From: Rhynchopus sp. YZ270_cl-10
Lineage: Eukaryota
Length of the DNA stretch: 64,000 nucleotides
Reading direction: 5' to 3'
NCBI GenBank assembly: GCA_964035575.1
Contig: OZ037840.1
Span: forward strand, 124,001-188,000
Shown here: one piece after another, positions 7,162 through 64,000 of the stretch
Layout of the letters: each line of letters begins with the position of its first letter
Numbering within the stretch: position 1 is the stretch's first letter
Program-made: the position numbers and the translations under genes
Notes under the pieces: generated by a model
Databases searched by the model: none
Seen by the model: the letters and a program-made list of their open reading frames with translations, nothing else
Told to the model about the DNA's origin: nothing

Positions 7162-7505
7162 AACAATTTATCAAAAAAAAAAAAAAAAAGGGATTTTTGT
7201 TTCGGTGCCCATATTGTGTTGTGGCCCAGGTGAAGCAAGATGCAGAGGCACAAAAAGGAACTTCAAAAATTGGAGCTGGGGGTTTGTGTGCTGTTTTACA
7301 TTGTACTTTCGTTTCCCTGCCCGGTGCAACGGAAGTTGACCTTTGGGAGGAAGAGCGGGAGAGAGCAGTGGGGGGGAAGGAGGGTGAATTTGAAAAATAA
7401 AACAAAAAGTAAAAAACTTAAATCTGTTATCAATCCACCGATAATGCTGGGGGGAAAAAAAAGGAAAGCAGGGTTGTTTCTAGGGGGGTCGGGGGGGGGG
7501 GGTTA

Positions 7506-8700
7506 GGGGAGGGTCACTGCACGTTAAATCTCTCGATAAATGCGATTTTTCCGATTTTGATCCTCAGAACCGCAGAAGTCCCCGAAAACTATACCAAACC
7601 ACCTAGGGGACCCAAAAAACGCACCAGCGACCCAGTTTTGACACAGAAACACTCAGATGATGCCTGAAATGCAATTTTAAAAGAGTGCCTACAGAACTTG
7701 TACCTGCCCACCCCCGTAGACAGAGCAACTCACGCATCCATCACGCCTCAGTGTGGGCCAGGGGCCAGAAAAGCCCCCAAAGCCACATATTTTCACCCCA
7801 GAACCTATCCCGAGGGGTACCCAGGCTGTTTCGGGGTGTTTAGAGGGACTTGGTGGAACTTAGAACCATGTTTCAAAAAGGGTACAAGTACTGTGCCAAG
7901 GGTTTGCCCTCTCAAGGGACCAAGTACTTGTACCCTTTTTGAAACATGGTTCTAAGTTCCACCAAGTCCCTCTAAACACCCCGAAACAGCCTGGGTACCC
8001 CTCGGGATAGGTTCTGGGGTGAAAATATGTGGCTTTGGGGGCTTTTCTGGCCCCTGGCCCACACTGAGGCGTGATGGATGCGTGAGTTGCTCTATCTACA
8101 GGGGGGGTGGGCAAGGTACAAGTTGGTGGTCACTTTTAAAAAATGCAAAAAAGTCGCTCAGAAGTGGTCAAAAGTGCCCAAAACCGGGCGGAATTCGATT
8201 TTTGGGGTCCAAATGGGCCTATGGTGTGGTTTTTTTGACCTCAGGGGGTATTTTTTGATTTATTGCCTACTTCACGTTTTTTGACGGCTTCAGATACCTT
8301 AGGGTGGGAAAACCCTTGGTACCAGGTGCGTGACACTTTTTGAAACATAGTTCTAAGTTCCACCAAGTCCCTCTAAACACCCCGAAACAGCCTGGGTACC
8401 CCTCGGGATAGGTTCTGGGGTGAAAATATGTGGCTTTGGGGGCTTTTCTGGCCCCTGGCCCACACTGAGGCGTGATGAATGTGTGATTTGCTCTATCTAC
8501 GGGGGTGGGCAGGTACAAGTTCTGTAGGCATTTTTTTAAAATTGCATTTCAGGCATCATCTGAGTATTTCTGTGTCAAAACTGGGGCGCTGGTGCGTTTT
8601 TTGGGTCCCCTAGGTGGTTTGGTATAGTTTTCGGGGACTTCTGCGGTTCTGAGGATCAAAATCGGAAAAATCGCATTTATCGAGTACAGTGACCCTCCCC
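7506..8700. mobile_element. Long-TIR foldback-type element (family A, copy 1), TA-flanked
   Basis: Ends GGGGAGGGTCACTG / CAGTGACCCTCCCC, each flanked by TA. Inverted arms run for several hundred bp and there is an internal ~190-bp-arm palindrome (about 7697-8123). An inverted copy lies at 12137-13329. Confidence 0.85.
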
Positions 8701-8761
8701 TACGGGGGGGGGTCACTGACCCCCCCCAGATTCTGGGGGGTCAAATTGACCCCCCCCGGGG

Positions 8762-9238
8762 CATACCTTCGCAAATTTATGACGTAGCGCGTAGCGCGTA
8801 GCGGGGGGGGACGTAGCGGGGGGGAGATAAGGTAGCGTACATGACGTAACGTAACGTAGCGTACATAACGTAGCGTACATGACGTAGCGTACATGACGTA
8901 GCGCACATAACGTAGCGTACATGACATAGCGTACATAACGTAGCGTACATGACGTAGCGTACATGGCGTAGCGTTCATAACGTACATGACGTAGCGCACA
9001 TAGCGTGCGTACGTTCATCGCGGCCAGATTTGACGAAATTTAATGTGCCAAGAACTTGTCCAATTTTCGAAATTGACCCCACGGTGGAAAGATCAGTGAT
9101 CCGAAAATGCAAATAACAGCACTTTTGGCCACATTCTCCACACGGGTGTAACATTCCCTGTACAAAAGGCTCACGACCCCTATTCGCAAAAGGGGACGTA
9201 GCGCCACCCCAAAATCAGGGTCAATTTGCGAAGGTATG
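8762..9238. mobile_element. MITE with CATA..TATG ends and 8-bp TSD (P- or hAT-like), containing a minisatellite
   Basis: TIR CATACCTTCGCAAATT / AATTTGCGAAGGTATG; TSD CCCCGGGG on both sides. Confidence 0.8.
8779..9012. repeat. Minisatellite of ~15-bp ATGACGTAGCGTAC-like units
   Basis: Tandem degenerate (a)tgacgtagcgtac / ataacgtagcgtac units; these produce the spurious YVMYAT ORFs. Confidence 0.85.
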
Positions 9239-9260
9239 CCCCGGGGGGGGGGGGGGGGTA

Positions 9261-11272
9261 GGGGCGGTCAAATGGGTGATACAAACCCACTTTTTTCAGT
9301 TTTCGATAAAAACGCATTTCTAAGTGAATCTGACCCGAAAATGTGACACATATCGTGTGGAAAACTGTTTGTCGGTCGGTTTTGACCCATTTTTCGGGCC
9401 CAGGAGGTGCTAAAACGTGAAAATTGAAAAATTGCCCATGATTGGTACCCCACGTTAAGTCGTTAAGGATTTCCTTAACGATTTCCTTAACGATTTTCCA
9501 ATTTTTGACTATTTTTGCATATTTTCACACGGAACTGCCCAAAATTAGAGAGTTTTGCCCCGAAAACAGGGTATCGTCAATTTTTGAGCAAAAAAATCGC
9601 AAAAAAAAATGAAAAAAATCGGAATTTAATTCCTTAACCCTTTACGGACCACGACCGATTTTTTCGATTTGCTAGGATCTTCTCTCCCGTAGGTAAAATG
9701 TGATCTGATGCATATTTTTGATCGTACCTGGCCGCAATTGAAAGATTTTGAGCAGATCTTTCAAATGGAGCAGAAATCGAAATAAAATGAGAAAAATGGA
9801 AAATGGAAAATTGAGGAGAGCTGATATTTTTTTCTGAAAATTTTGAAGAAAAAAATTATTCCGGCTGCGCACCTGTTTTTTCGGTTTTCGAAAATGGCTT
9901 TATTTGAAAGATCGGTTCAAAATCTTTCAAAAGAAAAAAAAATCGATCAAAAAGTTCTAGTAGATAATGTCTCACTGCATGGAGAGAAGGTACCAACCAA
10001 CTACATATACCGTAATTGTACAGAGGTTGGACAGTACAAAAGTTGGGGCTTTTGGGACTTTTGGCCAACTTGGCATGGTGCTGAACAAAGGTGAACGCCG
10101 CATCCCACGCACATGTAATCTGTTTTCAGACGCCTGTTTCCCAAGCAAGAAGAAGTTGTCGACCAACACCCTCCTGCCAGTGTCTCTGTACCTTGACCGT
10201 GTTGATATAGATTTTGTACCCCTCCCTGTGGCTTTCCGTACCCTCCCGCCGAAATTTCGAAGGGACCCTCCGAAAAAAATTTTTTTGGTCGCGAAAATCG
10301 GTCCAAAAACGGTCTAGATTGCCCCATGCGTGGCATTCCGGGCAATTTGAGGGCAATTTGGCGTGCAAGAGCCATGTGTGGGGCACCATGTGCCCCCATG
10401 CTGCACCCCTTATACAGGGTTTTTACAGGCAAAAAATGAAAAACGACAGTCGGGCACAAAAAGCCACGGATCGGGGCACAAAGTTACATCCCACCCTCCC
10501 TTGGCCCTCGGGACTCCTTTCGGGAGGTCAGGGCTTCCCTCGGGCCTTCGGCCCTCGGGGAGCCCTGACCTCCCTCAAGGGTCCCTCGGGCTTTGGCGGG
10601 AGGGAGGGAAATAACCATTCTGTACAATGTTCCTCAAAAGACAAAATGCAATAAATACACGGAGAAGAGGCACATCCAGTTCAGGGTCAGGAACTGCAAC
10701 TACGCGTGTTACTTTGCCCAGTCGCGGGTATTTTCCATTATTTTAGTTTCGTTCTGAAGACCGTACAAAATGGTTCCCTGCACACCAAAGTTTGAATCCT
10801 CTGATGACTCAAGCGCGTCAGAATGGTACATTATTCCCCAAAAATGACCCAAAATACCCTATTATGTGATAATGCCGGGTGTGGATGAGAGGGGATGAGA
10901 GCGTCAAAAAAAATCGAATCTTGCGTCTTTTGAAAGATTTCGCACAAAATCTTCTCATTTAAAAAAAAAATCTTCAAAAAGTCCTAGTGGAAGCCAATTT
11001 AGGTGGTTGCGTGGACATATATGTCCCCTCTGGTCCTTAAAGGGTTAAGGAATTGGTGGGGCCGGTACCAGTCATGGGCAATTTTTTTTTTTTTTTGGAA
11101 TTTCACCATTTGGGGTGCATGTGATCCCCCTCTGGCGTGAAAACCACCCCCCACGATGTTTTTGAGAGGTTCTTGGTCAAAATTTCTACTCAATCATCCA
11201 AAATAATGCGTTTTTATCAAAAACTCGAAAAATGACGTTTGTATCGTTTTTTTAAGTGCATTTGACCCCCCC
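9261..11272. mobile_element. TA-flanked non-autonomous TIR element (family C) interrupted by a piggyBac
   Basis: Ends GGGGCGGTCAAATG / CATTTGACCCCCCC flanked by TA; internal inverted match ATTGCCCATGATTGGTACC / GGTACCAGTCATGGGCAAT. Confidence 0.7.
9638..11044 (-). mobile_element. Internally deleted piggyBac element retaining a transposase C-terminal Cys-rich domain remnant
   Basis: TTAA|CCCTTTACGGACCA ... TGGTCCTTAAAGGG|TTAA. The minus-strand peptide KTDYMCVGCGVHLCSAPC (about 10074-10127) matches the piggyBac CRD pattern. Confidence 0.85.
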
Positions 11273-11276
11273 TAGG

Positions 11277-12107
11277 CATACTGTGCGGGCGAGTAAAAAA
11301 AACTCGCCTACTCGCCAAAAACTCGCCTAAAACTCGCCCATTTTTGGGGGGCGAGTTTTGGCGAGTTTTTTTTTTTTGGTAGGGATTTTACCTTGGGAAA
11401 AGTGTACACACGAAAATATGAGGGAAATTTGAGTTTTGAAGAGAAAATTTTTTTCGTTCCACTTGAACAAGACCTCTACAGTTTGCTTTGTAGGCTTCCA
11501 CAACCAGTACCACCAGTCCAGCTGTAGCTTCTGCGGATCCATGAAGTTTGCACAGATGGGTGCGATGTAGTCGTGGTGGAATACCGCCAAGGGGTTGACT
11601 GCAGGGTTGCCATTTACCGGCATGGCGAGGACATTGTTGTATAGCGAGTGTAGCCCCGGCTCATGTCTTCGTCATCCTCCGGATTGTAGCACGTCTTGTC
11701 CCCCGGGATCTATGGCACGCTTGGATCTTCCCCTGGAGCAAATGTTTACATACATGCCTGTCAGCCACTGCCGTGACATGGTTGCCTTTAGACGTACAAG
11801 TGACACAATTTCAATTTTTTTGTGTGTTTTCGAGTGGCATGTTGTCATCAGTCACCCCCGCCCTCCATTTTCACATCCTGGTGCACATTTTCACCCCCAA
11901 GGTGCGTATGTGCACCAGGATTTGCACCCAAATGTGGGCGAGTTTAGGCGAGTTTAGGCGAGTTTTTGGCGAGTTTAGGCGAGTTTTGGCGAGTTTTTGG
12001 CGAGTAATAGGCGAGTAATGGGCGAGTAGGGCGAGTTTTTGGCGAGTTTTTCCTGAAAATCAGGAAAACGAAAAACTCGCCTAAAAACGGCTCGCCTGCA
12101 CAGTATG
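11277..12107. mobile_element. MITE family D (CATACTGTGC ends, 6-bp TSD), copy 1
   Basis: TIR CATACTGTGCGGGCGAG / CTCGCCTGCACAGTATG; TSD CCTAGG; subterminal arrays of GGCGAGT/ACTCGCC. Confidence 0.88.
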
Positions 12108-12136
12108 CCTAGGGGGGGGGGGGGGGGGGGGGGGTA

Positions 12137-13329
12137 GGGGAGGGTCACTGTACTCGATAAATGCGATTTTTCCGATTTTGATCCTCAGAACCGCAGAAGT
12201 CCCCGAAAACTATACCAAACCACCTAGGGGACCCAAAAAACGCACCAGCGCCCCAGTTTTGACACAGAAACACTCAGATGATGCCTGAAATGCAATTTTT
12301 AAAAAATGCCTACAGAACTTGTACCTGCCCACCCCCCGTAGATAGAGCAACTCACACATTCATCACGCCTCAGTGTGAGCCAGGGGCCAGAAAAGCCCCC
12401 AAAGCCACATATTTTCACCCCAGAACCTATCCCGAGGGGTACCCAGCCTGTTTCGGGGTGTTTAGAGGGACTTGGTGGAACTTAGAACCATGTTTCAAAA
12501 AGGGTACAAGTACTGTGCCAAGGGTTTTCCCACCCTAAGGTATCTGAAGCCGTCAAAAAGCGTGAAGTAGGCAATAAATCAAAAAATACCCCCTGAGGTC
12601 AAAAAAACCACACCATAGGCCCATTTGGACCCCAAAAATTGAATTCCGCCCGGTTTTGGGCACTTTTGACCACTTCTGAGCGACTTTTTTGCGTTTTTTA
12701 AAAGTGACCACCAACTTGTACCTGCCCACCCCCCCTGTAGATAGAGCAACTCACACATCCATCACGCCTCAGTGTGAGCCAGGGGCCAGAAAAGCCCCCA
12801 AAGCCACATATTTTCACCCCAGAACCTATCCGAGGGGTACCCAGGCTGTTTCGGGGTGTTTAGAGGGACTTGGTGGAACTTAGAACCATGTTTCAAAAAG
12901 GGTACAAGTACTGTGCCAAGGGTTTGCCCTCTCAAGGGACCAAGTACTTGTACCCTTTTTGAAACATGGTTCTAAGTTCCACCAAGTCCCTCTAAACACC
13001 CCGAAACAGGCTGGGTACCCCTCGGGATAGGTTCTGGGGTGAAAATATGTGGCTTTGGGGGCTTTTCTGGCCCCTGGCTCACACTGAGGCGTGATGGATG
13101 TGTGAGTTGCTCTATCTACAGGGGTGGGCAGGTACAAGTTCTGTAGGCACTCTTTTAAAATTGCATTTCAGGCATTATCTGATTGTTTCTGTGTCAAAAC
13201 TGGGGCGCTGGTGCGTTTTTTGGGTCCCCTAGGTGGTTTGGTATAGTTTTCGGGGACTTCTGCGGTTCTGAGGATCAAAATCGGAAAAATCGCATTTATC
13301 GAGAGATTTAACGTGCAGTGACCCTCCCC
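12137..13329. mobile_element. Long-TIR foldback-type element (family A, copy 2, inverted)
   Basis: Near-identical reverse complement of 7506-8700, TA-flanked, inserted in a G-run. Confidence 0.85.
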
Positions 13330-14495
13330 TAGGGGGGGGGGGGGGTCAATTTTACCCCCAGAATCTGGCACGGTGCGCTGGTCAGCCTCACCCCCCTGTA
13401 AAAAATTACATATTTTCCCCCGAACTACACGTTTTCCACCCACCACCAGTGTTGGCACTGGTGAAGAGCGACAACACCCGCACCGACTACACTACGTGGA
13501 ACGGTGATGGCAGTGAGGAAAAAGACTTGGCGAAAAGAATAAAAGTAGCGTACCGTGCGCCTGCGGCGCAAGCTTACATCACACCCTTCCCATGACATAG
13601 TTTGGCTGTACAATAGTGCAATTTTAGAAATGTTGCGTACCGTGGCTTCGCCAGGAACCTTTGGGTGCCATGGCCACCGTTTCTTGACCTGTTTCATACC
13701 CTCACAGAAGCTACATACCACCATGATATTCTGAAGCTTTGGGGTATGGGGTTTTCTTGGTGAGATCGAGGCTTCATCGAGAAAGCTCGGAATACACCCA
13801 AAAACCCTTGAAAGACATGTGATGACCTGATGTGGTGACATTTTTCCCGGCGGAAAAAAATTTTTTTTTGGGAAAAAATTGACCCCCCCCGAGAAAAAAA
13901 AACGAGATCCTAGAAACAACCCTGAAGGAAAGGTAAAAAAGAAAAGTAGTTTCGGCCCCTGCCCCTAGACTGTAAATACACACCGTGGGGGAGGCCCTGG
14001 GGGAGGGGAGGGGGATATGCAGATGCGCGGACTTCATGAGGGTCTCGCGCAGTTTGCCACATACGATGTGTTAACTCTTCCCCAGGGCAAGGGGAGTCCA
14101 ACTACAGGTCTTCGCATATTTTCTTTGTTGTTGCTTTTGTGTTTGGATCCATGACCAAATGGTCTTCAGGAATCTTTTTTCGTGTTTTTCAAAAGTAAAA
14201 GTAAGTGTTTTTATCATAAAATACCTAACAAATAACAACAATTGGTGTGGCCGACGACCCCAAAATAGCACAAAAATAGCACAAAAATAGCACCCCCTTT
14301 CAGCCACACCAACAATACAGACAACAAACCAAAAAAAAAAAAAACACACGCCCAAGATTTAAAATGCCACATCACCGAGAGAGTGTGAGACAGCAGTAAT
14401 TTGCACCTGGGCAGTGCAGTGTCTAGGTAAAGGAAACGTTAAGAGTGCGAACCGAATCCTAAGAGAGCTGGTCCGACTGCATGGGGTGGTGTAGT

Positions 14496-44767: not shown

Positions 44768-45589
44768 TGCAACAACCCCAACTGTCTGTGTCAAGAATGC
44801 GACACCCGCTTGGTCGACCTTTTCCCTTTCTTCAAGTGTAGAAACTGTGGTGCAGTGTGGTGACAAAGTGTACTGCCAAGTTCTGACCCAAAAAAAATAG
44901 GGGCACGGACATTCTGGTACCATTTAGGTGAAGACGACACGGAAGGCGTCTGCAACTTCTGCACGATGAAAACGGAAATGCACCTGACCTTGTCGACCTA
45001 TCCACGCCTAGTCAAGGGAGTGTAGATACATGGGTTGGGGATGGGGTTCGGAGTGAGAAGTTCTCAGAACGCAGCATTTATTGGTTAGGTGGAAAAATAG
45101 TATAGCCTGTAATGGATTTTTGGGCATTTTACGGAATACTTTCTTTTTGTAAACTCACTCACATATTTTGGAAAAAATACAACACCGTCGTTTGTTAGCA
45201 ATTTCATCGAACTATGATTCATCAGTTGGCAGATGTACAGACGTGCAGCAAACGTTGGTGGGTTGCCCGATCTGCTCTACGTCTGTAGTTATGTTTTTGA
45301 AAACAATTTTTATTTTTGACTCCGTGGTTAACCTCGTATGTGGTTGCGCGGAGTTCGCAGTCGGCCCAGGGAGCCATCGTAACAAGGCTTGACGGCCACA
45401 GACAAACATGACAACGCTAACCACGACTGCACGGCAGAGCGGGGTGCCTTACGGTTCACTAGGGGGGGATCCACATAGATAAAGAAAACAAAAATAACGA
45501 AAGCAAGGAAGAAAACCAGTATATAAAAAAAAAAAAAAGGAAAAAATAATATTGTGAGTGAGTACCAGCAGGAATGCTGACACAACACT

Positions 45590-52533: not shown

Positions 52534-53233
52534 TGCAACAACCCCAGCTGTCTGTGTCAAGACTGCAACTCAAATTGGTCGACCTTTTTCCTTTCTGGTG
52601 TACAAACTGTGTAAAAACTGTGGGTGCAGTGTGGTGACAAAGTGCACTGCCAAGTTCTGACCTAAAAAGTGTATGGTGCCGAGGTGACCAAAAATTAGAT
52701 TCATCACCAAAAATGCAATTCAGTCTGTTTGGACACTTTTGAACATGCGAGATGTGAACAGGTTAGCATGGCTTGAGACGCTGTTCTAACTTGTCATCGT
52801 GGCGTCCCCAAAAACTCGCGATAGGTCACGTTGAGCCATGAGACATGCTACGGTACTCTGGGTCTCAGGAACATGCAAGCTATGAGGGTTCGTGTACGGT
52901 TGTATGGTTTAGTCTTAAGGGTGTGCACTGTACGTAGGGGGTGTCTGACAATACCGTACTAGGAACTATTCTGGGTTGTAACTGTTTTTGGGACAAAATA
53001 GAAACTAACTTCAGGTTCTGAATAAAAAGAAAACAATGAAAAACAACTTTTTCGTTTATCGCTCCGTAAGCTTGTTGTGTTTTTTCGCTGAAGTGTGTGT
53101 TGTATGAGAGAGAAAAAATAATGAGTGAGAAAACACAAGCTGGCGGGCACGCACCTTCCGTCGTTTCTATTTCCTATTGTCAACCTTGCACGGTGCAGTC
53201 TGTCGTGCTTAGAGTGTGTCGAAAACAGACTTA

Positions 53234-53462
53234 CCCCCTGAGTCCGACAGTCGGACCCCCTGAGTCCGACAGTCGGACTCAGGGGTCCGACAGTCGGACT
53301 CTGGAGTCCGACAGACGGACTCTGGGGGTCCGACTGTCGGACTCTGGAGTCCGACAGTCGGACTCTGGGGTCCGACAGTCGGACCCAAAAAAAAAAAATT
53401 TTTTTTTTGGGCCGAAAAAAAAATTTTTTTTTTCGGCCAAAAAAATTTTTTTGGCCGAAAAT
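53234..53462. repeat. Tandem palindromic satellite (GAGTCCGACAGTCGGACTC, ~21-bp period) followed by An/Tn palindromes
   Basis: About 7 units seen directly. Confidence 0.85.
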
Positions 53463-53763
53463 CGCCTTGTATAGTCACTACAGTACACATGCTATAACCA
53501 AAATAGCCGTATTTTGACTGAAAATTTGACTTGAAAATTTTTTTCCTTGTTTGGTCAATCTGAGGTTTTCTTTGGATTTTTTGGGCCATTTTATGACCTA
53601 CCACGCCCAATTTTTTTGGGAGGGGGAAATTATTTTTTGGTCAAAAAATGGCCTTGTTGCCTACTACTGGGTATAGGCTTGTTCAGAGATGTGTGTATTT
53701 GGTGTACCCGGACATGGTCAAAACACATGATTTTTGCACATCATTTTTTTGGTGTGGGGGGGG

Positions 53764-55547
53764 AACAGACTAGCATGACAACACGAGCCCCGACTGCCGG
53801 TCAAGGGGGTTTTAATGGATTTTAAGCGAAAACTTCATTAAAACTCATTTTCTTTGGGGGGGGGTTTTTTTTTTTTTGTTGGTCCAAACCAGGGCGATCG
53901 GTAAGAGATATGATGGTTTTTGGGGGATAAAAGAAAGAACAAGAAAGCAACAAAAGGATACCAGTAAAAAAAAGAACAATAATGTATTCCGCAAACCCGT
54001 AAACCCGCAAGGGTTTACGGGTTTGCGGAATACAGTACGGTTGCGTATACCCCGGCGGGATGGGAAAGTGATTTTTTTTGCCTCTTTGGGAAGGCTCGTT
54101 TTTTCATTTATTGTTACAAAGTAACAATTGTTACTGTAACAATAAATGGAAAAACGAGCCTTCCCTTTTTTGCTTTTGTGTCTGTCTCCCATTTCCTTTT
54201 CTCAGACTCAAACACATCAAAAAATGGCACCCAAAACCAAAGCGGCACCCAAACCGGCAGCCAAAGCGGCACCGACTGCGTCTGGAAAAAGGAAAAGGGA
54301 GGACCAGAATGGACAACCACAACCGGCAAAGGCGAATACACCGGAGACTGACTTTATCACTGCGTACACCCAGTCGCAAGCAGGGAACGTGATGGTGCTC
54401 TCGCATCTAAAACTTTTATATGCGAGAATCACCGGCGCCACTGTGCACCCCAACTCCCCCACCATGATGAACGCATTGGTGAACGTGTACCCGGGACTGG
54501 ACACGAAGCTCAGCGTGACCCAACACGACGCCGCGACTGAAGACAAAAGGTTGCCATCATACTTTAAGGTATGCTCCCTTATTTGGTATTACACTATGCT
54601 ACTACATTCATTTGTATACATAGGTCGCCAAGAGGGCAACAGACGGCAAGCACCTTGTGCAGCTGTATGGTGTGTGTCTTCGTTCTTTCATGATCACTGG
54701 GTGGAAAGCAGAAACCTCTGCCAAGAACAAACTCTACGTGCGAGTGAGGGAGAGCATCCTCCCTAAGTACAGGGACTGTGATATGTGCTCGCTCTACTCA
54801 GCGAAGCCTAAGGCGCAGCTGTCGACTCTGCAGGAGAAGACTTTCCCCACCCTCACCCCTCTTCCTGTCGAAAACGACACGCACACAATGCGCATCGAAG
54901 GGTGCTTTGTCGACATCGCATACCTTGTGAATGCGAATAAGGTTGACCTGCAGTGTACGCGCAGAGTGCCCGAAGGCTCAACCCATCCCTCGGGTGTGTA
55001 CAGGGTGGATTACTTCTTGCCCCGCCCATCCCGTGAGGACAAGGCCATTTCCTGCGCTCCTGTTGACGGGCAGATTGCCTTGTGGGAGGTAAAGGTGTGT
55101 TACTTGGTAGCTTTTCCTGCAACTTTTTGACTGTTATCCAATAATAACTACACAGATTGTTATGGAGCAGGTGAAGGAGAGCAGGCAGGGGCTGGGCAAG
55201 GTGGACCGCCAGAAGTACATCGATCTGATGGGGGTGGACCTCGGGGAAGGGGAAGAGGAGGAGGAGGAGGAGGAGGAGGGTGAGGGTGAGTCGATGTTAC
55301 CATCGGCCGGTGTCACCGTCCTTTCACAGGATGCTTTTTCCGGAAACCCGCAAACCCAGGTTGTTGAAAACCTCTGATTTTTTTTTCAAATTTTTACTGG
55401 TATCCTTTGTTGTTTTCTTGTTATCTATTTTCCCTGAGGACCTCCCCCCCCAGTGAACCGTTTATACGGTTCACTGGGGGTCGGTACTGCATTTGGGACC
55501 CCGTTCTGCGTTGGCAGTCGTATCTAGCGTTGTCATGTTAGTCTGTT
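53764..55547. mobile_element. Putative long-TIR (Mutator-like?) element carrying a spliced gene
   Basis: AACAGACTAGCATGACAAC..CGACTGCC is inverted as GGCAGTCG..GTTGTCATGTTAGTCTGTT. Subterminal CAACAAAAGGATACCAGTAAAAA is inverted near 55391. A related end lies at about 45397-45530. No TSD found. Confidence 0.55.
54224..55377 (+). CDS. Hypothetical, probably nuclear protein; three exons (54224-54568, 54624-55094, 55156-55377)
   Basis: Polypyrimidine-AG just upstream; N-terminus MAPKTKAAPKPAAK..GKRKRE. Two short GT-AG introns join three ORF-track pieces in frame (second donor could be 55089). Acidic C-terminal tract. Confidence 0.7.
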
Positions 55548-55865
55548 TCACACAATAAGATAAGATGGAGTCCCTTACATGTGATTTCCCCCCCTCTTTT
55601 TGCTTTCGTACCATGCATCATGATCAAGTGAGAATCCAAAAGAAAAAAAAAAAGAGGGAGGGTTTTTTTTTTTTTTTTTTGGTGAACAACATTTTGACCT
55701 TCACAGTGGGCTCGTAAGGACATTACGGGAGTGATGCCGTCGTAATTACGGCATCATGACGAGGGCACACTTCGTCATGCTGTCGTAATTACAACGAACG
55801 TCGCCAACATGATGACGTCATCATGACGTCATCATGACGAGGGGGTGCGTTCCTTGATGACCTCA

Positions 55866-55954
55866 ACGATGGTGAAGTAAATGACTTGACTTGTGGTTTC
55901 ACCGTTGTAAGCCAACGGTGAAACCACAAGTCAAGTCATTTACTTCACCATCGT
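55866..55954. repeat. Perfect 42-bp inverted repeat with a 5-nt loop
   Basis: Arms 55866-55907 and 55913-55954; loop TAAGC. Confidence 0.92.
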
Positions 55955-57719
55955 GTCCCCAGCCCGACTTTGGGAAAAAACAAACAAAAATCTTAACGTA
56001 CACTCTCTGTTGATTCTAAAACGGGGGAGGGTAAAAAAGGCGTGAAAGGTAAATTGGGGAAGAGGTTGAAAAGTTGGAACGCTTCCTCACCCCAGATCAC
56101 ACTACAATACAAAGGTTTGGGTTTGAATAGGGTGGGTTCTTCTGACGATGAAACCTACTCCCTTCTAAACTTTCTTTTTTTTTTTTTTTTTTTTGAAAAA
56201 TAAATAAAACTCCTCTCGAAATTGTTCAAGATTGAACTGAGAGAAAGAAGAAACCCCAAACCCTCCCAGACCAAACGGTCTAACCTGTTGTATTGACATA
56301 GTGTGGGGAGAATGAGGAGCACAAGAATCGTCTTCGCGCATACTAAAAGATTTCCTACGATATGTCACAAGTGTCATGTCACCGAAAAATCTTAACGTAC
56401 ACTCTCTGTTGATTCTAAAACGGGGGAGGGTAAAAAAGGCGTGAAAGGTAAATTGGGGAAGAGGTTGAAAAGTTGGAACGCTTCCTCACCCCAGATCACA
56501 CCCAGGACCCTTGGGACCCTCAAGGGACGCTACGCGAAAAAACTTCTTCAGCGAAACGGGATGATCCATCCAGGAGCGCGGGAGGAGATCTGGCCCGAAA
56601 TTGTTCTGTGTGGCTGCAAATAAATAGAGTAACTGCGTAACTGTCTCCAACGATGCAGGGATTGAGATAAAAATGATATATGATGGCCCGAAGTCTCGCG
56701 TGCTTCGTCACTTTCCTTAGATACGTTCTTGCAACGCAGCAGCTGCGTAGGATACCACAAAGGCATTGTTCCGATGATGAAAATCCCCCAACAGTAATTT
56801 AGGCACGCACGTTGTAGTGTTCACGTAATGAGCATGGTGTAGACCGGGTGCGTGAGAGATTGGACGATGGTCGTATTCACGAGTCTGGGTGCGGCAAAAG
56901 GATCGGCCCTGCAAAACAAGTGAACTTCTAACGGTCACCAGTTGTCTCTCTTGGAAAACAACAGTCCAGGTTGCCTCAACATCGCTAGCTGTGGTTTAGA
57001 AGCTTGCCTATATTTTGCAATCGGCGTCGAGTAATCGCTGTCGTGCGTCGGAAATCGCTTCGTCTACTATTTCGATGTTCCTGCACAACGGAGCGGAGGC
57101 TCTCTCTCTCGACTTCTTGTTGCTGCCTGCTCATTTTTGGTGTTGTACAGTGTCGGGGCACTCCGCGAAAACGCCAGCTTCGACATCTACTACGAATCAT
57201 GACGTTATTCCTGGTGTGGACTTGCGATTTCGTGTCCATGAAAATGAGGCTGTACAAGGTCACCCCACGCGTTGTACCCTCTGATTTCGTCAGTTTTGTC
57301 GAACTTGGTCGCTTGCTCCCAAGGAAGCTTGTTGTTGTATGCCCGCACGTAGTATTTCCACGTGTCATCTCCCATCACGAGGGCCGGCTGAATCGGTAAC
57401 GCCCGTGTTTCTGAGAAGTGAAACTGCCCAGGTGTTCTCTGCAGCATCAACGTCCATTGTTCTTTGTTCTGTTGTCTTCCACCTCACCATGCGTATCAAT
57501 CTTCAGGGCTTCAGCAATGGAAACCTCTCTCGGAGGGCTTACAGTAAACTTTGCTGAGTACTTCACCTCTTAAACGAGAACCCTCAAAAGTTGCCTACTC
57601 CGGAGGACTTCGGTCGACAAAAGGTTTCCTCATCTTGAGGACTGCCGAATAGTGGCCTCCTCTAGGGGATTTCAGTCAAACAAAATACAGCATCGGCAGT
57701 AAGGTCACCACAAGTAAGT

Positions 57720-58680
57720 ACTCCGCATTTCATGTAAACGAACTTGTATCCTCACGGGGAAGTCCTCGAAGGCGTCGGTCGTGGTCGCGAGCAGGTTGAC
57801 GTCTCTCTGAAGCAGGTGGGCTTCTGTGGAGCTGTTGCTGCTGGTATGCACGGAAGCAGATAAGCGGCCCCCGCAGCTGGGTGGGAAGGTGTAGTGCCTG
57901 GTAAGTTCTTGTTGCAGACATCCTTCGGAGTGCTCACCCCGTCGTCCGTGAGTCTGTGTAGTAATGGTAGTAGTTGTCTCCAAGGAGCGCTCCCCTGCAG
58001 AAAAGATGGGTGTGCTTGTTCGTCAGACACTTCGGTGATGGTCTCACGAAACGACGCAACGGCTCGTAGATCTTCCACTTGACACAGTCATGTAGTCCTC
58101 CTGAAGATCCTTCAGACAGATATCAAAGCGAAGCTCTCCCGCTCCGGCGATGGTGTGTTCTCCCGACTCCTCAATCGAGCACTGCATAAGCGGGTCGGAC
58201 TTCGGCAGACGCTTCAGTCCCTCAACAAGCTTGGGCAGGTCGGCGGGGGAGGAGCACTCCACAGCGACACGCACAGCGGGCGATACAGTGTACTTCATGT
58301 CCTTCAGGGGGTAGCACTCGCTCTCCTTCTCGTCAGTTGGTCGCAGTCTTCACAAATGTTACCACAGGGCACGTCCTCAACACGGCCTCCTGGTAACGCT
58401 CCATTCTGAGCAGGGTACAATCACTGCGGCGCTGGATGTTCTTCACAGCCATGTCCTTCTTGGTTTCGGATTTGTAGTTGGGACCCCTGGTGCGTGCCTT
58501 CTGTCCGTCCTTGATCTTCCCAGAGAAAGACACGACCGAAACGCGGTGAAATGTGTCTTGTCTGCCGCGGAAACATCTTCGACACGTACATGAATAGGGC
58601 GGAGGGTGATCAGTGCGACGGGGTCGTAGTTCTGCAGTCCCTGGAAATAGTTGACTGCACGGTAGAAGGTGCAGAAACTT
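57720..58680 (-). pseudogene. EEF2: Decayed partial copy of eukaryotic elongation factor 2 (domains II-IV)
   Basis: Pieces in shifting frames: [96 protein letters not shown] and SFRETI. Confidence 0.88.
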
Positions 58681-59582
58681 TTCGACATCCGCACACCCCT
58701 TTTGGACTTCGGTGCATGTGGCACAGGCTCCAAAAAACCGCTTGCCATCATAGTTGAAAGTATGATGAGGCACACTGTCTCGTGAAGTCGATGTTGTAGT
58801 TTGGCAGGAAACGTAACTTTTTTGAATCCTGTCGTCTGTGTCGAGGACCTTAATCGACGGTACGAAGGAAAATGCCTGGACATCCTTGTGTTGAAACCAT
58901 CTGGGCAGTAAAGCCTGTTGATGTCTGACACCGGTGGCCACGCAGGGCAGTCTGAGAGGATGCCGCCTTGGAAGTCGAGGGCGGTTCCTTCACAGGTCGC
59001 CGTTTGCGAGTGTCGCGCTCTGTGCACTTGAGTGGGCTTGGGTGGTCAGATGGGGTGGTCGGAGAAGGGAGCTGGCTGCCACCTCTAGGTACTGCGAGAC
59101 AAACTTCTCTGGGGTGCGGGTGATTGTAAATGTACTGTGTCCGTGTTGGCAGATCTGGACAGCACATCCGGGAATCTCCACGTAACTGCTGTCCTCTGTG
59201 TATATCCCAGCCTTTGAAGGCCTTTCGAAATTAATGCCAAACCCCGTAGGCCGGATGATGTCGTCAAAAAACGCTGACTGAACCCCTAAAGCTGACTCTG
59301 GGCTGCGCGCAAAACAGCGTCGTAGAGCACGTTTTTCGCATACGCAGCGCGTGTGGGTGTTGTAACTGGCAGCATCTTCACAGACCAAAACTCCAAAGGG
59401 TGCCCTTCTTATAGGGACTTGAAACCCAAGTCAGCAGAGTGACCTTCCTTTTAGGGACTAGAACACGGCAGACCGGCGAGGGGTGCCCTTCTTATAGGGA
59501 CATTTGTCGGAGCGGCGAAAGAATGTAGAATCAGGGGTTCCGCTACCGTATAAGATTCAATTTGGTTGAGGGTCGAAGGTGT

Positions 59583-60232
59583 GGAAATAAACAACAAATG
59601 GTTCTCATACCAAAGTTGTTGTGGCGGCGTAGGTGTATAAAATAAACAACAAGAGGTTCTTATACCTAGTTGTTGTGGCGGCGTAAGTGTTGAAAATAAA
59701 CAACAAGAGGTTCTTATACCTAGTTGTTGTGGCGGCGTAAGTGTTGAAAATAAACAACAAGAGGTTCTTATACCTAGTTGTTGTGGCGGCGTAAGTGTAT
59801 AAAATAAACAACAAGAGGTTCTTATACCTAGTTGTTGCAGCGGTGCATGTGTAGAAAAATAAACAACAAGAGGTTCTTATACCTAGTTGTTGTGGCGGCG
59901 TAAGTGTATAAAATAAACAACAAGAGGCTCTTATACCTAGTTGTTGTGGCGGCGTAAGTGTTGAAAATAAACAACAAGAGGTTCTTATACCTAGTTGTTG
60001 CAGCGGTGCATGTGTAGAAAAATAAACAACAAGAGGTTCTTATACCTTGTTGTTGTGGCGGCGTAAGTGTTGAAAATAAACAACAAGAGGTTCTTATACC
60101 TAGTTGTTGTAGCGGTGCATGTGTATAAAATAAACAACAAGAGGTTCTTATACCTAGTTGTTGTGGCGGCGTAGGTGTAGAAAATAAACAACAAATGGTT
60201 CTTATACCAAAGTTGTTGTGGCGGCGCAGGTG
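59583..60232. repeat. Minisatellite, 12 units of 54-55 bp, each with an internal hairpin
   Basis: Consensus AAAATAAACAACAAGAGGTTCTTATACCTAGTTGTTGTGGCGGCGTAAGTGTTG. Confidence 0.92.
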
Positions 60233-60736
60233 TCCTCGTACGACGGAGAAGCGTCATGACAGTGAGAATACCTCACTTGTTCACATGTTCTGTACTTCTT
60301 TTTTCTTTTTTTTTTTTTTTTTTTTTGAAAAATAAATAAAACTCCTCTCGAAATTGTTCAAGATTGAACTGAGAGAAAGAAGAAACCCCAAACCCTCCCA
60401 GACCAAACGGTCTAACCTGTTGTATTGACATAGTGTGGGGAGAATGAGGAGCACAAGAATCGTCTTCGCGCATACTAAAAGATTTCCTACGATATGTCAC
60501 AAGTGTCATGTCACCGAAAAAAAAAAAAAATGGGTCAAAAAATCGACTTGTCTTTGGTAAAACAACGAAAATTTGGGTATGACGTCGTCATAACGTGGGG
60601 GTGCCCCCGTCATGACGACGTAGCGCGCGTATTTTCACCCCGTTTCTGCCCCCATCACTCGTCACGTAATGTCATTCCGAAGTCCACCGTGTATTTGTAC
60701 ACATTTTCTTATCACATTTATCCTCCAGTGCCCAGT

Positions 60737-62656
60737 ATGTCACAAAATGATCAGTCACGGCAAGGTCAGAGTTTCCCCGAAACGCTGGAGGCCATGCACC
60801 TAGAAGGCGAGGGCCCGTCCCGGCGGTGGTTCGGCAAGGCGAACAAGCGTCATCGTGAGGAAACGGGGGAATCCGCGGGGTTGAGCCCGAAACGCATGCG
60901 TGTCATAGAGGAGCCGCAGCGCGAAGAGACGAGGGAGAGGCTGCACAGGGGGTTGCTTGGTACATGCGAGTACTTGGAGGAAGAGTTTGTCGCTCTTGGC
61001 CACATCAGGTCGTCAGCTGCGCTGGCCTTGGTGCTGTACAGTGATGGCTACACCCCATTCGGCATGAAACCGAGTAATGCACGCACGCGCTTCTCCGTGG
61101 GCATCATAGACCCCCTCTCCGGCTTATCAACCAGGGGATTGACGGTGGTTGACCTGAAGAAGGCGGAGTATGCGGTGTGGGAGCACGGCACCCTCATTGA
61201 CGATATTGCACTCGTGCACAGGTCAAGTGTCATGAGGAACGTGGAGCGAAAGGGCAAACCGCGGACTCTCGTGAGCCGGTTCTTCGTGCTGAAGATCACT
61301 GGTGACCACCTTGACCAGTGGTGTAAGGTGAAGGGTTGCGGGGGGAGGGGCCACAAGTGTACCATGTGTGCCATCCCAATGTCGCAGTGGCTGCTGATGA
61401 CGCACCGCTTTCCCCACCTCTCCTTGCAAGAGATGTCGGATGCCGGCTTTCCTTCTTTCCTCGCAGGAGTAGCCCCAAACGCTCACTTCGTCAGCCCCCC
61501 CCTGCACGACCTCAAGGGTATGGCTGAGTGTTTGCGCGATGTCATGAAGCCCCAGACCACTGGTGTCTTCGACAGTGTGTGCCGACACTTCAGGTACGAC
61601 CTGAGCGGGGGGAACTCCAAAGGGAGCCAAATGCGGGACGTGATCCGCAAAATGGCTGAACTGGCGGATTACCCCCTCGTCGACAGACTCATGTTCATTT
61701 CTTTGAGTGAGCTGTCGAACTTCAGGTACGGCGACGTCCCTTGGAGGCACCATGCGAAGGCTGAGCCCGCGGCTCTCTTCCCCTTTCTTCGCGCACGCAT
61801 CGCAGGCCACGTTTTCTTGTGCCTCATGGAAACCGTCTCCCCCAAGAGCACCCTCAGCACCTACTGCCACAGCATGCAGCACTGGTGGAGTCCGCTAGAT
61901 GCTGTTCCTCTCCTCAACAACGACGAGCCAGAGGAACAGGAGAACGGACAGAGGAAGCGTGGTGCGAGTAACACGAGTGTCGCCACCTACGAAGAAATTC
62001 AGGCAACCTCAGAGGTGGCGAGGAGGGCGAGGCAGACCCCGTGGAAGGTAGCGGACCTATCTGATGAAGGGCTAAAGGGGAAAAAGGACATCATCCTCTG
62101 TCCCTGCATCAGTAGCACGCATGCGATGGTACTCGCGACGTACGTTTTGTGCACGCAACTCAGTGAGAAAAAAAGTGGTTTTGTTTTTTTTTCGGGGGGA
62201 TACTGTCTTTTTCGTTTTCCAAAAGGGAGAGGACGCGCAAAAGTGTGCCTCTGTTCTACAGACCCTCCATCTGATGAAAAATTTGAGCTTTTTGTAGCCA
62301 GTGATAACAAATTCAATGAGTTTGAAGCTGCTGCAATTGCAGAGTGTGACGAGGAGAACGGTTCACAAGGGAATGAGGAACCGGAGGGAGACGGCACTGC
62401 GGCGTGTGATTTTTGTGAGAAGCCAATGGCCGCAAATTCTCTTGCGGTTCACATTGACAACACACATCGCAGGAAAGACAGCAGTCTCAGTGCTGTTTGT
62501 CCCATATCTCCGTGTAGCAAAACAGTCAAATCTTTGACTAGGCACATGGAGTTGAAACATCCAGATTTTTTTTTTGAAGAGAACAGATGCAAATTATGTT
62601 TTTTGTTGTTTCAATCTTCTGAAGAATGGGTAGCACATTGTGAAGGTCATGCGTAG
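60737..62656 (+). CDS. RAG1/Transib-like DDE transposase with C-terminal C2H2 zinc fingers (639 aa from ATG 60737)
   Basis: Motifs in RAG1-core order: YSDG..RFS, TGD, CTMC, GV..PPLHDLKG, TYCHSMQH, DEPEEQENG. C-terminal CDFC..H..H, CPISPC..H..H and CKLC..H..H. The ATG follows a pyrimidine-rich AG. Confidence 0.75.
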   Translation: MSQNDQSRQGQSFPETLEAMHLEGEGPSRRWFGKANKRHREETGESAGLSPKRMRVIEEPQREETRERLHRGLLGTCEYLEEEFVALGHIRSSAALALVLYSDGYTPFGMKPSNARTRFSVGIIDPLSGLSTRGLTVVDLKKAEYAVWEHGTLIDDIALVHRSSVMRNVERKGKPRTLVSRFFVLKITGDHLDQWCKVKGCGGRGHKCTMCAIPMSQWLLMTHRFPHLSLQEMSDAGFPSFLAGVAPNAHFVSPPLHDLKGMAECLRDVMKPQTTGVFDSVCRHFRYDLSGGNSKGSQMRDVIRKMAELADYPLVDRLMFISLSELSNFRYGDVPWRHHAKAEPAALFPFLRARIAGHVFLCLMETVSPKSTLSTYCHSMQHWWSPLDAVPLLNNDEPEEQENGQRKRGASNTSVATYEEIQATSEVARRARQTPWKVADLSDEGLKGKKDIILCPCISSTHAMVLATYVLCTQLSEKKSGFVFFSGGYCLFRFPKGRGRAKVCLCSTDPPSDEKFELFVASDNKFNEFEAAAIAECDEENGSQGNEEPEGDGTAACDFCEKPMAANSLAVHIDNTHRRKDSSLSAVCPISPCSKTVKSLTRHMELKHPDFFFEENRCKLCFLLFQSSEEWVAHCEGHA

Positions 62657-64000
62657 TATCAGATCAGGTACAGTGGGTGAGGGCGAGGATCATGCATTTT
62701 GTTTTTTTGTTTTTGAAAAGTTGGTTGTATTAGTGTAGCCACCCTAGAGTGTGCTCCACTAATATTTTTTTGTTTTTTTTTCATTTGGGTATTCACTCTT
62801 TTTTTTTGTTGTTCACTTCATAATCTCATCATGAAATGCTTGCCCCACCCTTTTTTTTTCACCCACCCACACCCACACCTCCCCACCATCCCTCAACAGG
62901 ATTACACCAAAACAATGAAAATTGGGTTTTAAGTACCCTATTTCTCTCAGAAGTCAGTCACTGCTATTGCCATTTAACCCAGGGAGCATAGCTAGTGCAA
63001 GAAATTCGACCTTTGGAAACTTTCCGGAAAGTCTGTCCTCTGCTCGCGGAGGACTAGACACAAGAAAATATTGCGTTCCCCCAGAAAACCAGTGCACAAT
63101 TCACACTCCTTGTGGGTGGTCTTGTTGCCTTTTCGTCATAGTAATTTTGGCCCAGGCATGTTCTTGAAGCATGACAATTTAGTGTGTATGGGGCAGGGTG
63201 TTGTTTTGTTCTGAATTCTCTTTGTTATAACATCTAAGTCAATTGCGGGTGGTGGTTTGTGTAGCGTGAGGCACTCTTTTTAACAAACTTCCTGCAGTTG
63301 CTATGCACTGTTATTTCTTCGGATTTATCATCATACAGCGTAACATAGTGGATTCGCCTGGTCGACACAACCTTTGATAGATATGGGATAACCAACCCCC
63401 TTCGACCCCTCGTGGGTTCACTAAACAAGCCCTCGTGGTAGTTAAACGCGATTGACATTTACATTCCTAGAGATGAAAGAACAAGACAACACTTCTGTAC
63501 CCGCGCATCAAAATTGTGGAAAACTTTGCACCCCAAACACCCTCAACAACGCCCGCCAAAAGGCGCCCCTTGTTGCTGGGAGTTGGTTCTCATGTTTGAT
63601 ACCTGCACAGCGGGAATTCCTCTGAGTCCAACGCATGTTTGGCCTGTCTGCGGCGTTGCACTTCAGGTGCACGAAGACAGGGTCTGGTGGTAAATTTTGC
63701 GTAGTACTGCGACGTGGTACTGCGTGGGTCTGGGAATATGGGTACCTGGGTACAGGATATTGGTTGTGTAAGACATCTTCCACCATGCATTGAGGAGGGT
63801 AAGACAGTGTTCGCAGTTTCTACCTGATAGCATTACAACATTTAACTTCTCCACGGGGGTCTTGGGCCGTTCACTCGGTTATACCTTGACTACCGGAAGA
63901 TATTCTTGAGGCCTTTTTGGTCTCTAGAATATCCGGTCTTCCCGAACGGAGGCACACTTTGTGTGTTACTACGACCTGGCAATTTCCAGCAGTAGGTTAA

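Follow-up and report, generated by a model that had tools for sequence, protein, structure and literature searches.

An uninterrupted reading frame in the DNA of Rhynchopus raises the question of whether diplonemids, an abundant marine group, host an intact transposase with the fold of RAG1, the enzyme behind antibody gene assembly, and, if so, where such an enzyme belongs within the CMCT clade, the group formed by EnSpm, Chapaev, Transib and RAG1. Debate over how Transib and RAG first evolved still draws on sequences from animals, fungi, algae and bacteria. The window is the whole stretch of 64,000 nucleotides in which the frame lies, and all coordinates refer to it.

Reading frame and predicted catalytic residues

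60737..62656, plus strand: transposase ORF, single exon, uninterrupted, 639 aa

The frame was predicted to be intact and proved stop-free over its whole length; relatives align with it end to end, their start methionines falling at approximately the same place. Its base composition is uneven, since GC3 falls at codon 474 (345/473 before, 59/166 after) and the 3' third is AT-rich, with T-runs. The possibility that the zinc-finger tail derives from an intron or from read-through was rejected, as relatives align with it residue by residue despite these features, and the full-length alignment indicates that the 3' third is coding. None of 11 runs is recorded as RNA for this copy, a result with no bearing on expression.

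Conservation was read from an alignment of 44 rows, comprising the query and 43 relatives (some of them near-duplicates), picked by similarity to the query or from clusters of those matches. In each count, the denominator is the number of rows with a residue at that position.

61043..61045, plus strand: D103, first predicted catalytic Asp, first RNase H strand; Asp in 29/29 rows
61304..61306, plus strand: D190, second predicted catalytic Asp, at a strand end; Asp in 33/33 rows
61358..61369, plus strand: C208-x2-C211, predicted zinc ligands, the C(2)C motif of CMCT; C211 in 36/36 rows
61505..61507, plus strand: H257 of the PPLHD motif; His in 37/37 rows
61868..61882, plus strand: H378-x3-H382, predicted zinc ligands, the H(3-4)H motif of CMCT; each in 35/35 rows
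61934..61936, plus strand: E400, predicted catalytic Glu, last RNase H helix; Glu in 34/34 rows

The motifs cited in the original prediction were all recovered where it had placed them (D103 at 61043, D190 at 61304, C208/C211, H257 of PPLHD, H378/H382 and E400 at 61934), and they go beyond chance because, C208 excepted, the residues are invariant wherever they are aligned. Its claim of a complete set of DDE residues and zinc ligands holds for D103, D190, E400, C211, H378 and H382, but not family-wide for C208, which is a Cys in 9/34 rows and Ser/Thr in the other 25, a departure from the CMCT pattern. Those 25 rows have a Cys 17 residues further on, and one zinc ligand has apparently shifted within the family, to judge from the alignment. 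The His pair was likewise present as claimed, with its spacing corrected to H-x3-H; the interval is three residues in all 26 rows that retain both D190 and E400.

According to PMC12730594, C(2)C after the second Asp and H(3-4)H before the Glu are common to all CMCT lineages; the query has both, and for this reason they do not single out RAG1 or Transib. The distance from the second Asp to the Glu is 210 in the query and 196-213 across 26 family rows, compared with 206-214 in Transib and 253 in RAG1 (PMC1131882).

Predicted core fold and C-terminal tail

60764..62038, plus strand: RAG1-fold core, residues 10-434 (AlphaFold model and VIA alignment to mouse RAG1)
62099..62254, plus strand: additional alpha/beta domain, C-x-C ... 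C-x-C (C455, C457, C504, C506), pLDDT ~86-91
62306..62395, plus strand: acidic linker, low model confidence
62405..62650, plus strand: three C2H2 zinc fingers (C557-H577, C588-H608, C618-H638)

The AlphaFold model of the core (pLDDT 90.5) is predicted to comprise equivalents of the DDBD, pre-RNase H, RNase H, zinc-binding insertion and CTD, with no NBD. Foldseek returned RAG1 in all its top rows (E 4.7e-7, TM ~0.47), and an independent search also ranked RAG1 first (Z 17.1). With VIA, residues 1-425 of the model (10-434 of the protein) lay over residues 460-1001 of mouse RAG1 (Z 18.9, rmsd 4.2, 403 aligned), followed by HzTransib (Z 16.4, rmsd 4.8, 392 aligned), P element transposase (Z 14.9, rmsd 5.5, 336 aligned), ProtoRAG (Z 14.5, rmsd 4.7, 393 aligned), ISCth4 (Z 10.7) and Hermes (Z 8.7). 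The best matches in Foldseek and VIA were thus RAG1 and then HzTransib, as the original prediction implied, in lists whose CMCT members are RAG and Transib only and whose lack of any EnSpm, Chapaev or Plavaka chain means that the ranking does not exclude those families. The expected convergence of the triad is also borne out by the model, in which secondary structure and the whole-core alignment would put the three acidic residues at canonical RNase H positions. The protein is accordingly predicted, from its modelled structure, to work like a RAG1/Transib transposase. A viral structure library gave two weak matches, a Pandoravirus protein labelled hAT (E 4.5e-4, rmsd 17.6) and one from a bracovirus (E 0.11).

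In comparison with the RAG1 core (mouse, zebrafish; PDB 6XNZ, 4WWX, 6DBW) and RAG1L (ProtoRAG, PDB 6B40; AanRAGL, PMC9435367), the query has the same predicted fold from DDBD to CTD, a span of ~400 residues (Z up to 18.9), together with the D/D/E triad, C(2)C and His-pair motifs, at ~11% identity. It differs in lacking the N-terminal zinc/RING region, the NBD and the CTT1 motif. Only nine residues precede the DDBD equivalent, and the non-core region of RAG1L (C1-C3, ZDD RING) is absent; relatives start at about the same place. CTT1 reads Cx2Cx3GHx4C (PMC7204232), and the relative P0013 has a comparable knuckle at its end, in which Ala replaces Gly. The query in turn adds the four-Cys domain and the three fingers. 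A RAG2-like partner was not found among the ORFs scanned, in agreement with the original remark that no kelch gene is visible: Pfam reported none in 18 translated ORFs, almost all of which lie at 50-64 kb.

Transib (HzTransib, PDB 6PQX and 6PQN; subgroups I and II of PMC9435367) resembles the query in being a single gene of 600-700 aa at low copy number, in its Asp-Glu spacing and in its predicted fold. The query departs from it in the lack of any sequence-level match, in H-x3-H and in its C-terminus. Both Transib subgroups are reported with an NBD-equivalent region and a GRP motif (PMC9435367), whereas the query has no equivalent: its N-terminus contains no GRP, and residue 10 already aligns to RAG1 residue 460.

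The tail, composed of four-Cys domain, acidic linker and three fingers, is common to ten relative clusters, so the C2H2 array noticed in this protein is a family trait. Among solved structures, the family profile hits C2H2 arrays, for example that of CTCF (E 1.5e-7). Within the four-Cys domain, Cys is conserved at C455 in 30/33 rows, C457 in 33/33, and C504 and C506 in 32/32 each, and the domain is likely zinc-binding. Its C-terminal model gave no Foldseek hit at E 0.001 and a best VIA Z of 3.8, which does not make the fold new.

Family, copies and element ends

Relatives of the protein number 35 among 1.84 billion representatives. Those with a species name are all diplonemid (Diplonema papillatum, Rhynchopus euleeides and Lacrimia lanifica); the D. 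papillatum members DIPPA_24690 and DIPPA_18572 are annotated as hypothetical proteins, and full-length relatives are present in Rhynchopus and Lacrimia transcriptome assemblies. Because most family members are metagenome or assembly records without a species name, the family may have hosts other than diplonemids. A tree holding family members only contains many divergent subfamilies.

Among the matches listed, searches with phmmer, Pfam, a word index and the PDB gave none outside the family in the core. Word-index searches returned 1, 4 and 4 family proteins and nothing else; in the PDB, the protein matched only in its finger region, and the same region alone was covered by the best 60 of 72 and the best 60 of 105 matches of the family profiles. 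Pfam found no RAG1-domain, Transposase_21, Plavaka or DUF1280 in the query (E 1) or in 23 relatives (E 0.1). The alignment is too diverse to offer a stretch conserved enough for scanning DNA, and no relatives appeared in scans of metagenome, viral and prokaryote contigs or in plasmid tblastn.

No Transib/RAG1-type transposase from diplonemids was found in the published literature, Repbase and subscription papers lying outside the scope, and the supplement text of PMC9435367, figures aside, does not mention Diplonem, Euglen, Discoba, Rhynchopus, Naegleria or Excavata. The DNA transposons reported for D. papillatum are TATE, MULE and Helitron, and 'Transib' is absent from the main text of that study (PMC10161547); they share with the present element its host group and a repeat-rich setting between gene clusters.

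The evidence on copies points to recent mobility. The 90% cluster includes one copy that differs by a single residue and sits on a contig of different length, as well as a copy in two parts (100% and 99.7%) on a third contig; fragments at 92% and 86% occur on two further contigs. Among the relatives, identical proteins are found on 6 contigs (P0047, P0053) and on 9 (P0046). One contig of run X1 departs from the window at 62738 and continues with 538 other letters. The near-identical copies could also represent one locus in different assemblies or haplotypes. In runs X2 and X5, the ORF is covered to a depth (~340-560) near that of a neighbouring stretch (307-477), which marks the ORF as low-copy. 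It lies inside an 11-kb repeat cluster with an EF2 gene fragment rather than a gene array, and the 1.3 kb downstream of it in the window are mostly high-copy repeat.

60302..60521, strand not assigned: poly(T)-headed repeat of 220 nt, directly upstream of the ORF, with a second copy at 56171-56389
62728..62764, strand not assigned: hairpin 72 nt past the stop (z -4.2), its left arm reading CACTAATA on the minus strand

CMCT elements end in 5'-CA..TG-3' and duplicate 2-5 bp of target; in EnSpm/CACTA the ends read CAC(TA) and the duplication is 3 bp. No TIR pair or TSD was found around the ORF when 52600-60736 was compared with 62657-64000 for inverted matches of 14 nt with up to 2 mismatches: 39 non-low-complexity matches were obtained, none near both ORF ends with a 5-bp duplication and none forming a CAC-heptamer, RSS-like TIR pair as in Transib. 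Local alignment of the two flanks yielded no convincing match. Other repeats fill the left side, and the poly(T)-headed repeat is probably a separate insertion masking the left end. On the right, contigs from three runs either stop or diverge from the window at 62738-62750, and the hairpin is a candidate for the right end (62735), unless it begins the following repeat. Between 52 and 64 kb, every Rfam match fell short of its gathering score and lay on a hairpin.

Placement, mechanism and significance

We consider it probable that the frame encodes a DDE transposase of the CMCT clade, predicted to be catalytically intact, from a cut-and-paste element that was likely mobile until recently and that likely belongs to a lineage of its own, shared with diplonemids. 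Within the broad RAG1/Transib/EnSpm group, it likely forms its own branch rather than a direct RAG ancestor. A separate lineage is suggested by the lack of sequence matches outside the family, the diplonemid origin of all named members and a tail unlike that of RAG1L or Transib; it is weakened in that its basis is absent sequence matches, and a true Transib, Nozomi, is also without domain hits (bioRxiv 10.64898/2026.08.26.747230). The original proposal of a divergent RAG1-like or Transib lineage is therefore retained as far as fold ranking and the spacing of 210 go, but the motifs are CMCT-wide and the hallmarks of RAG1L were absent or not found. Its statement that such transposases are described mostly in animals was overstated, an active RAGL transposon being known in the alga Aureococcus and Transib-like proteins in bacteria, fungi and plants (PMC9435367).

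The family might instead belong to the Transib superfamily proper as a highly divergent branch, either as sister to the Transib/RAG1L clans or nested in them, which we regard as unlikely. The Asp-Glu spacing fits Transib and not RAG1, the whole core aligns to RAG1 and HzTransib, and TIRs and TSDs vary among Transib elements. In language-model features, RAG1 clusters come first among named families (0.94 for the query, 0.96 for a distant relative), and an arthropod cluster in which 38% of members carry PF26100 (0.94) exceeds Transposase_21 (0.92, 141 shared features) and Plavaka (0.91); a DUF1280 cluster of Chapaev type, however, equals it at 0.94 for a relative, the family occurring on 16% of that cluster's members. 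The missing NBD equivalent, CTT1 motif and Pfam RAG1-domain also speak against Transib. The His pair is H-x3-H, the spacing typical of EnSpm and Plavaka, and not the H-x4-H of RAG1. This spacing, the CACTA read in the candidate end and the feature scores for Transposase_21, Plavaka and DUF1280 would suit a place on the CMC side (EnSpm/CACTA, Chapaev, Plavaka, ESTA), with RAG1 on top only since the structure lists show no chain of those families. Chapaev carries an N-terminal Chapa zinc domain, whereas the query has no Cys-rich N-terminus. ESTA, an EnSpm-like fungal group, is likewise recognised by HHpred only via RAG1 (PMC12730594). We nevertheless hold the CMC side to be quite improbable: the query has no Pfam or sequence match to any named CMCT lineage of that study (EnSpm/CACTA, Mirage, Chapaev, Transib, Plavaka, ESTA, Lanisha), no EnSpm or Plavaka clusters are among the feature matches listed for P0053, and the CACTA string (62728-62735) is one hairpin arm, unpaired upstream in the window.

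A host gene that was domesticated from such a transposase and no longer moves, with a DNA-rearranging or DNA-binding role in diplonemids, would agree with the low copy number, the lack of detected ends, the transcriptome records and fingers resembling those of transcription factors. Selfish elements, however, typically show what is seen here: many divergent subfamilies, near-copies that are split or fragmentary, and proteins repeated unchanged on 6-9 contigs. In addition, the repeat-cluster neighbourhood is not a gene array, leaving domestication very little probability. A closer kinship with P-element-type transposases than with CMCT is scarcely credible: their Z of 14.7-14.9 is level with ProtoRAG, but over 336-340 residues against ~400, at higher rmsd and 2-4 Z units under the best RAG1 rows, while no THAP domain was matched in Pfam and C(2)C and H(3)H are CMCT marks (PMC12730594).

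By analogy with RAG, ProtoRAG and HzTransib, the protein would dimerise through its N-terminal helices and hold two metal ions at D103/D190/E400. Each transposon end would be nicked and then released via a hairpin on the flanking DNA, and the ends would be inserted into the target with a short (2-5 bp) duplication and without a RAG2 partner. In place of the missing nonamer-binding domain, the C2H2 array, tethered by the acidic linker, is proposed as the end reader and would contact subterminal element DNA. More speculatively, and in our view doubtfully, the family could be the deepest-branching sister of Transib and RAG1, a still-active Discoba transposon lineage with the full RAG1 core, no NBD and C2H2 end reading; it would then offer a living outgroup for the origin of RAG end recognition and a RAG-type enzyme that could be retargeted to other ends by finger swaps.

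The RAG origin story is not changed by this family alone, protist RAG-like elements having already been published (Aureococcus, PMC9435367). What is added to diplonemids is an unannotated, apparently intact, multi-copy RAG1-fold transposase lineage, likely undescribed before, within the known CMCT clade. A Discoba lineage with another DNA-binding solution (no NBD, a new four-Cys domain, three C2H2 fingers and an apparent ligand shift) would be a useful outgroup, and a diplonemid transposase would give a simple single-protein system for biochemistry.

Predicted catalytic residues and fold

The transposase is encoded by 639 open codons on the + strand (60737-62656), and the translation of the window bears out the ORF and motif positions of the original prediction, with D103 at 61043, D190 at 61304 and E400 at 61934. 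C208/C211, H257 and H378/H382 are situated between D103 and E400, and the three predicted C2H2 fingers are present at residues 557-638. Pfam returned a sub-threshold zf-Di19 match at the fingers and otherwise only a weak SNF2 match, which has no other support. A single-sequence PDB search with the transposase gave matches at the finger region only, and none of 23 relatives matched a Pfam core family at E 0.1.

Residues 10-510 were modelled with AlphaFold2 using alignment A2 (the query and its relatives; 44 rows picked by similarity, near-duplicates included), reaching a pLDDT of 90.5 and a pTM of 0.88. In the predicted model the three acidic residues occupy the usual places of a DDE triad: the first RNase H strand (D103), the end of a strand (D190) and the last long helix (E400). 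RAG1 chains were the top Foldseek matches (E 4.7e-7), followed by ISCth4 (8.6e-4) and HzTransib (4.3e-3). VIA-align superposed model residues 1-425 on RAG1 460-1001 (Z 18.9, rmsd 4.2, 403 aligned), with lower Z for HzTransib (16.4), P element (14.9), ProtoRAG (14.5), ISCth4 (10.7) and Hermes (8.7); a wide structure search agreed, giving RAG1 a Z of 17.1 and unrelated folds 5 or below. The ESM Atlas, which counts as one independent source, ranked RAG1 clusters top among named families for the transposase (0.94, 166 shared features; Transposase_21 0.92, Plavaka 0.91) and top again for its relative P0053 (0.96, 188 shared features; DUF1280 and a Transib-like arthropod cluster both 0.94).

Family, zinc site and C-terminal tail

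A full phmmer search with residues 60-440 as query, covering 1.84 billion representatives, found 35 proteins at E <= 0.001, with identities of 27-52% save for two near-copies at 92% and 85%. Among 30 family proteins looked up in cluster tables, all species-named members are diplonemid: Rhynchopus euleeides and Lacrimia lanifica (Trinity transcript assemblies from EukProt), and Diplonema papillatum (DIPPA_24690 and DIPPA_18572, labelled hypothetical). The Lacrimia protein has 35% identity across 479 columns and a D. papillatum relative 39% across 142 residues. Most members carry no species name, and the host range may be broader than diplonemids. Judged by these relatives, the host of the window is presumably diplonemid-like too. 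A tree of 19 members contains two well-supported groups, the transposase of the window falling with the relatives P0003, P0004 and P0006 and the Lacrimia protein.

D103, D190, C211, H257, H378, H382, E400 and N403 are invariant in the A2 rows with a residue there (29-37 rows). In 25 of 34 rows Ser or Thr takes the place of the first Cys of the C(2)C motif (position 208), and all of these rows carry Cys at 225, where the protein of the window has Phe; no row misses Cys at both positions. This alignment pattern, which maps to 61358-61411 of the window, looks like a moved zinc ligand, and the exchange may have been a single event on the tree.

The cysteine pairs C455-x-C457 and C504-x-C506, kept in 30-33 of 32-33 A2 rows, belong to a small alpha/beta domain that follows the core; it is modelled with confidence, and structure searches gave no fold match for it. 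Then come an acidic linker and the three C2H2 fingers. In A5, a second family alignment, the three-finger tail occurs in 13 of 24 rows, from 10 clusters, and other members have a single finger there, a CCHC knuckle (P0013) or neither, so the tail is modular. Third-position GC falls sharply at codon 474, from 73% to 36% (Fisher p 3e-17, the change point being picked to maximise the difference). The drop spans 62156-62653, inside the ORF, and suggests from base composition that the gene is a mosaic; the AT-rich 3' stretch is coding, and we infer that it may have been acquired by recombination with an AT-richer relative.

Placement among known transposases and proposed mechanism

It is very probable that the protein acts like a RAG1/Transib transposase, and by the protein features tested it is a member of CMCT, the clade of EnSpm, Chapaev, Transib and RAG1 transposases. 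The RAG1/Transib-like reading of the original prediction is partly supported, by the predicted fold and the CMCT features; the protein is assigned to neither Transib nor RAG1L (RAG1-like transposases). The top structure match to RAG1 cannot pick among CMCT lineages, because RAG and Transib are the sole members of the clade in the structure lists. The D-E spacing, compared with the Transib range in an excerpt of PMC1131882, and the ESM Atlas ranking do favour Transib, and excerpts of a recent preprint allow true Transib without domain matches and describe variable terminal inverted repeats (TIRs) and duplication lengths within that group (bioRxiv 10.64898/2026.08.26.747230). Against both assignments, the RAG1 match does not reach N-terminally beyond the dimerisation domain, and the nonamer-binding domain (NBD) and the N-terminal non-core region are accordingly lacking (PMC9435367; PMC7204232, in excerpt), the C-terminal motif CTT1 is absent and no RAG2-like protein was found among the ORF translations scanned (PMC7204232, in excerpt; PMC9435367). 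The description that fits the transposase best is that of a diplonemid lineage not described before, distinguished by a C-terminal architecture of its own.

An active RAG1L-RAG2L transposon has been published from Aureococcus (PMC9435367), so that finding such an enzyme in a protist has a precedent. The elements named in the consulted part of the D. papillatum genome paper are TATE, MULE and Helitron (PMC10161547), a trypanosomatid survey reports low element diversity (PMC12278014), and a broad DDE survey (bioRxiv 10.1101/2021.09.26.461848, in excerpt) found 35 Transib transposases and puts the expected share of Excavata among hosts at <1%. Searches of one literature collection listed no paper on this family, and within that collection a RAG1-fold transposase appears unreported for diplonemids.

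RAG, ProtoRAG and HzTransib have nick-and-hairpin cleavage in common (PMC10462144, in excerpt). By analogy with them, the predicted RAG1 fold and the intact triad suggest a cut-and-paste mechanism, in which the transposase would dimerise, its DDE site would cut both element ends, leaving the donor flanks as hairpins, and the cut ends would be inserted into a target. We propose that the C2H2 fingers, in a putative role, would read subterminal DNA in place of the absent NBD.

Flanks, copies and neighbouring features

Features of the window outside the transposase ORF
7483-13331: large palindromes, formed by a 0.4-1.2 kb repeat present in several inverted copies
15335-52569, - strand: about 11 membrane-protein paralogues in tandem, adenylate/guanylate cyclase type
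53225-53461: high-copy palindromic array, 21-bp unit, then A/T palindromes
53764-55547: 1.8-kb unit with imperfect inverted repeats of 35 nt at its ends, further nested inverted arms
55866-55954 and 54088-54165: near-perfect long hairpins in the repeat cluster, 42-nt and 31-nt arms
56171-56389 and 60302-60521: near-identical pair of a 220-nt repeat, long T run at the head
58047-58349, - strand: elongation factor 2/G gene fragment (EFG_III, E 6.7e-11), located in the repeat cluster
59585-60233: tandem array, 11.9 copies of a 54-bp unit, internal inverted repeat in each
62728-62764: hairpin, z -4.2, arms CACTAATA
About 62740-64000: repeat downstream of the ORF, summed depth about a thousand times that of the ORF in sequencing runs X2 and X5

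Inverted-match and flank alignment searches found no TIR pair or target duplication around the ORF. Directly upstream lie a poly(T)-headed 220-nt repeat and the 54-bp tandem array; the T-headed repeats resemble the 3' end of a retroposed element, and the copy at 56171-56389 is bordered by identical 117-nt direct repeats (55986-56102 and 56385-56501). Reads from other loci link 53613-like sequence to 60538-like sequence, a hint that the 5' flank of the transposase may be related to the repeat family of 53225-53461.

Downstream, contigs of X1, X2 and X5 stop or depart from the window at 62738-62750, one X1 contig continuing with 538 other letters, and CACTAATA strings occur four times in the window against 0.55 expected. 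The contig breaks and the hairpin fit a right end near 62735 and, no less well, the beginning of the next repeat. That repeat is also present in X1 and X7, extends beyond the window end and has short ORFs without Pfam matches.

Contigs of different lengths carry a copy with a single residue changed, a split copy and two decayed fragments, and identical relatives of the transposase were found on 6 to 9 contigs. These protein-level copies support mobility of the putative element; in part they could reflect one locus assembled more than once. Read depth suggests few copies of the ORF, and few copies are usual for autonomous Transib elements (PMC4411706, in excerpt).

The 53764-55547 unit is possibly another mobile element, its cargo being an apparently intron-split gene (about 54224-55377) without Pfam match; a solo copy of one unit end lies at 45398-45448. 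The elongation factor fragment is apparently a pseudogene or captured piece, and Rfam matches of the repeat-cluster hairpins were all under gathering scores. In the cyclase-type array, Guanylate_cyc (E 9.5e-24) was matched in the last paralogue; the eight upstream of it have a different C-terminal domain.
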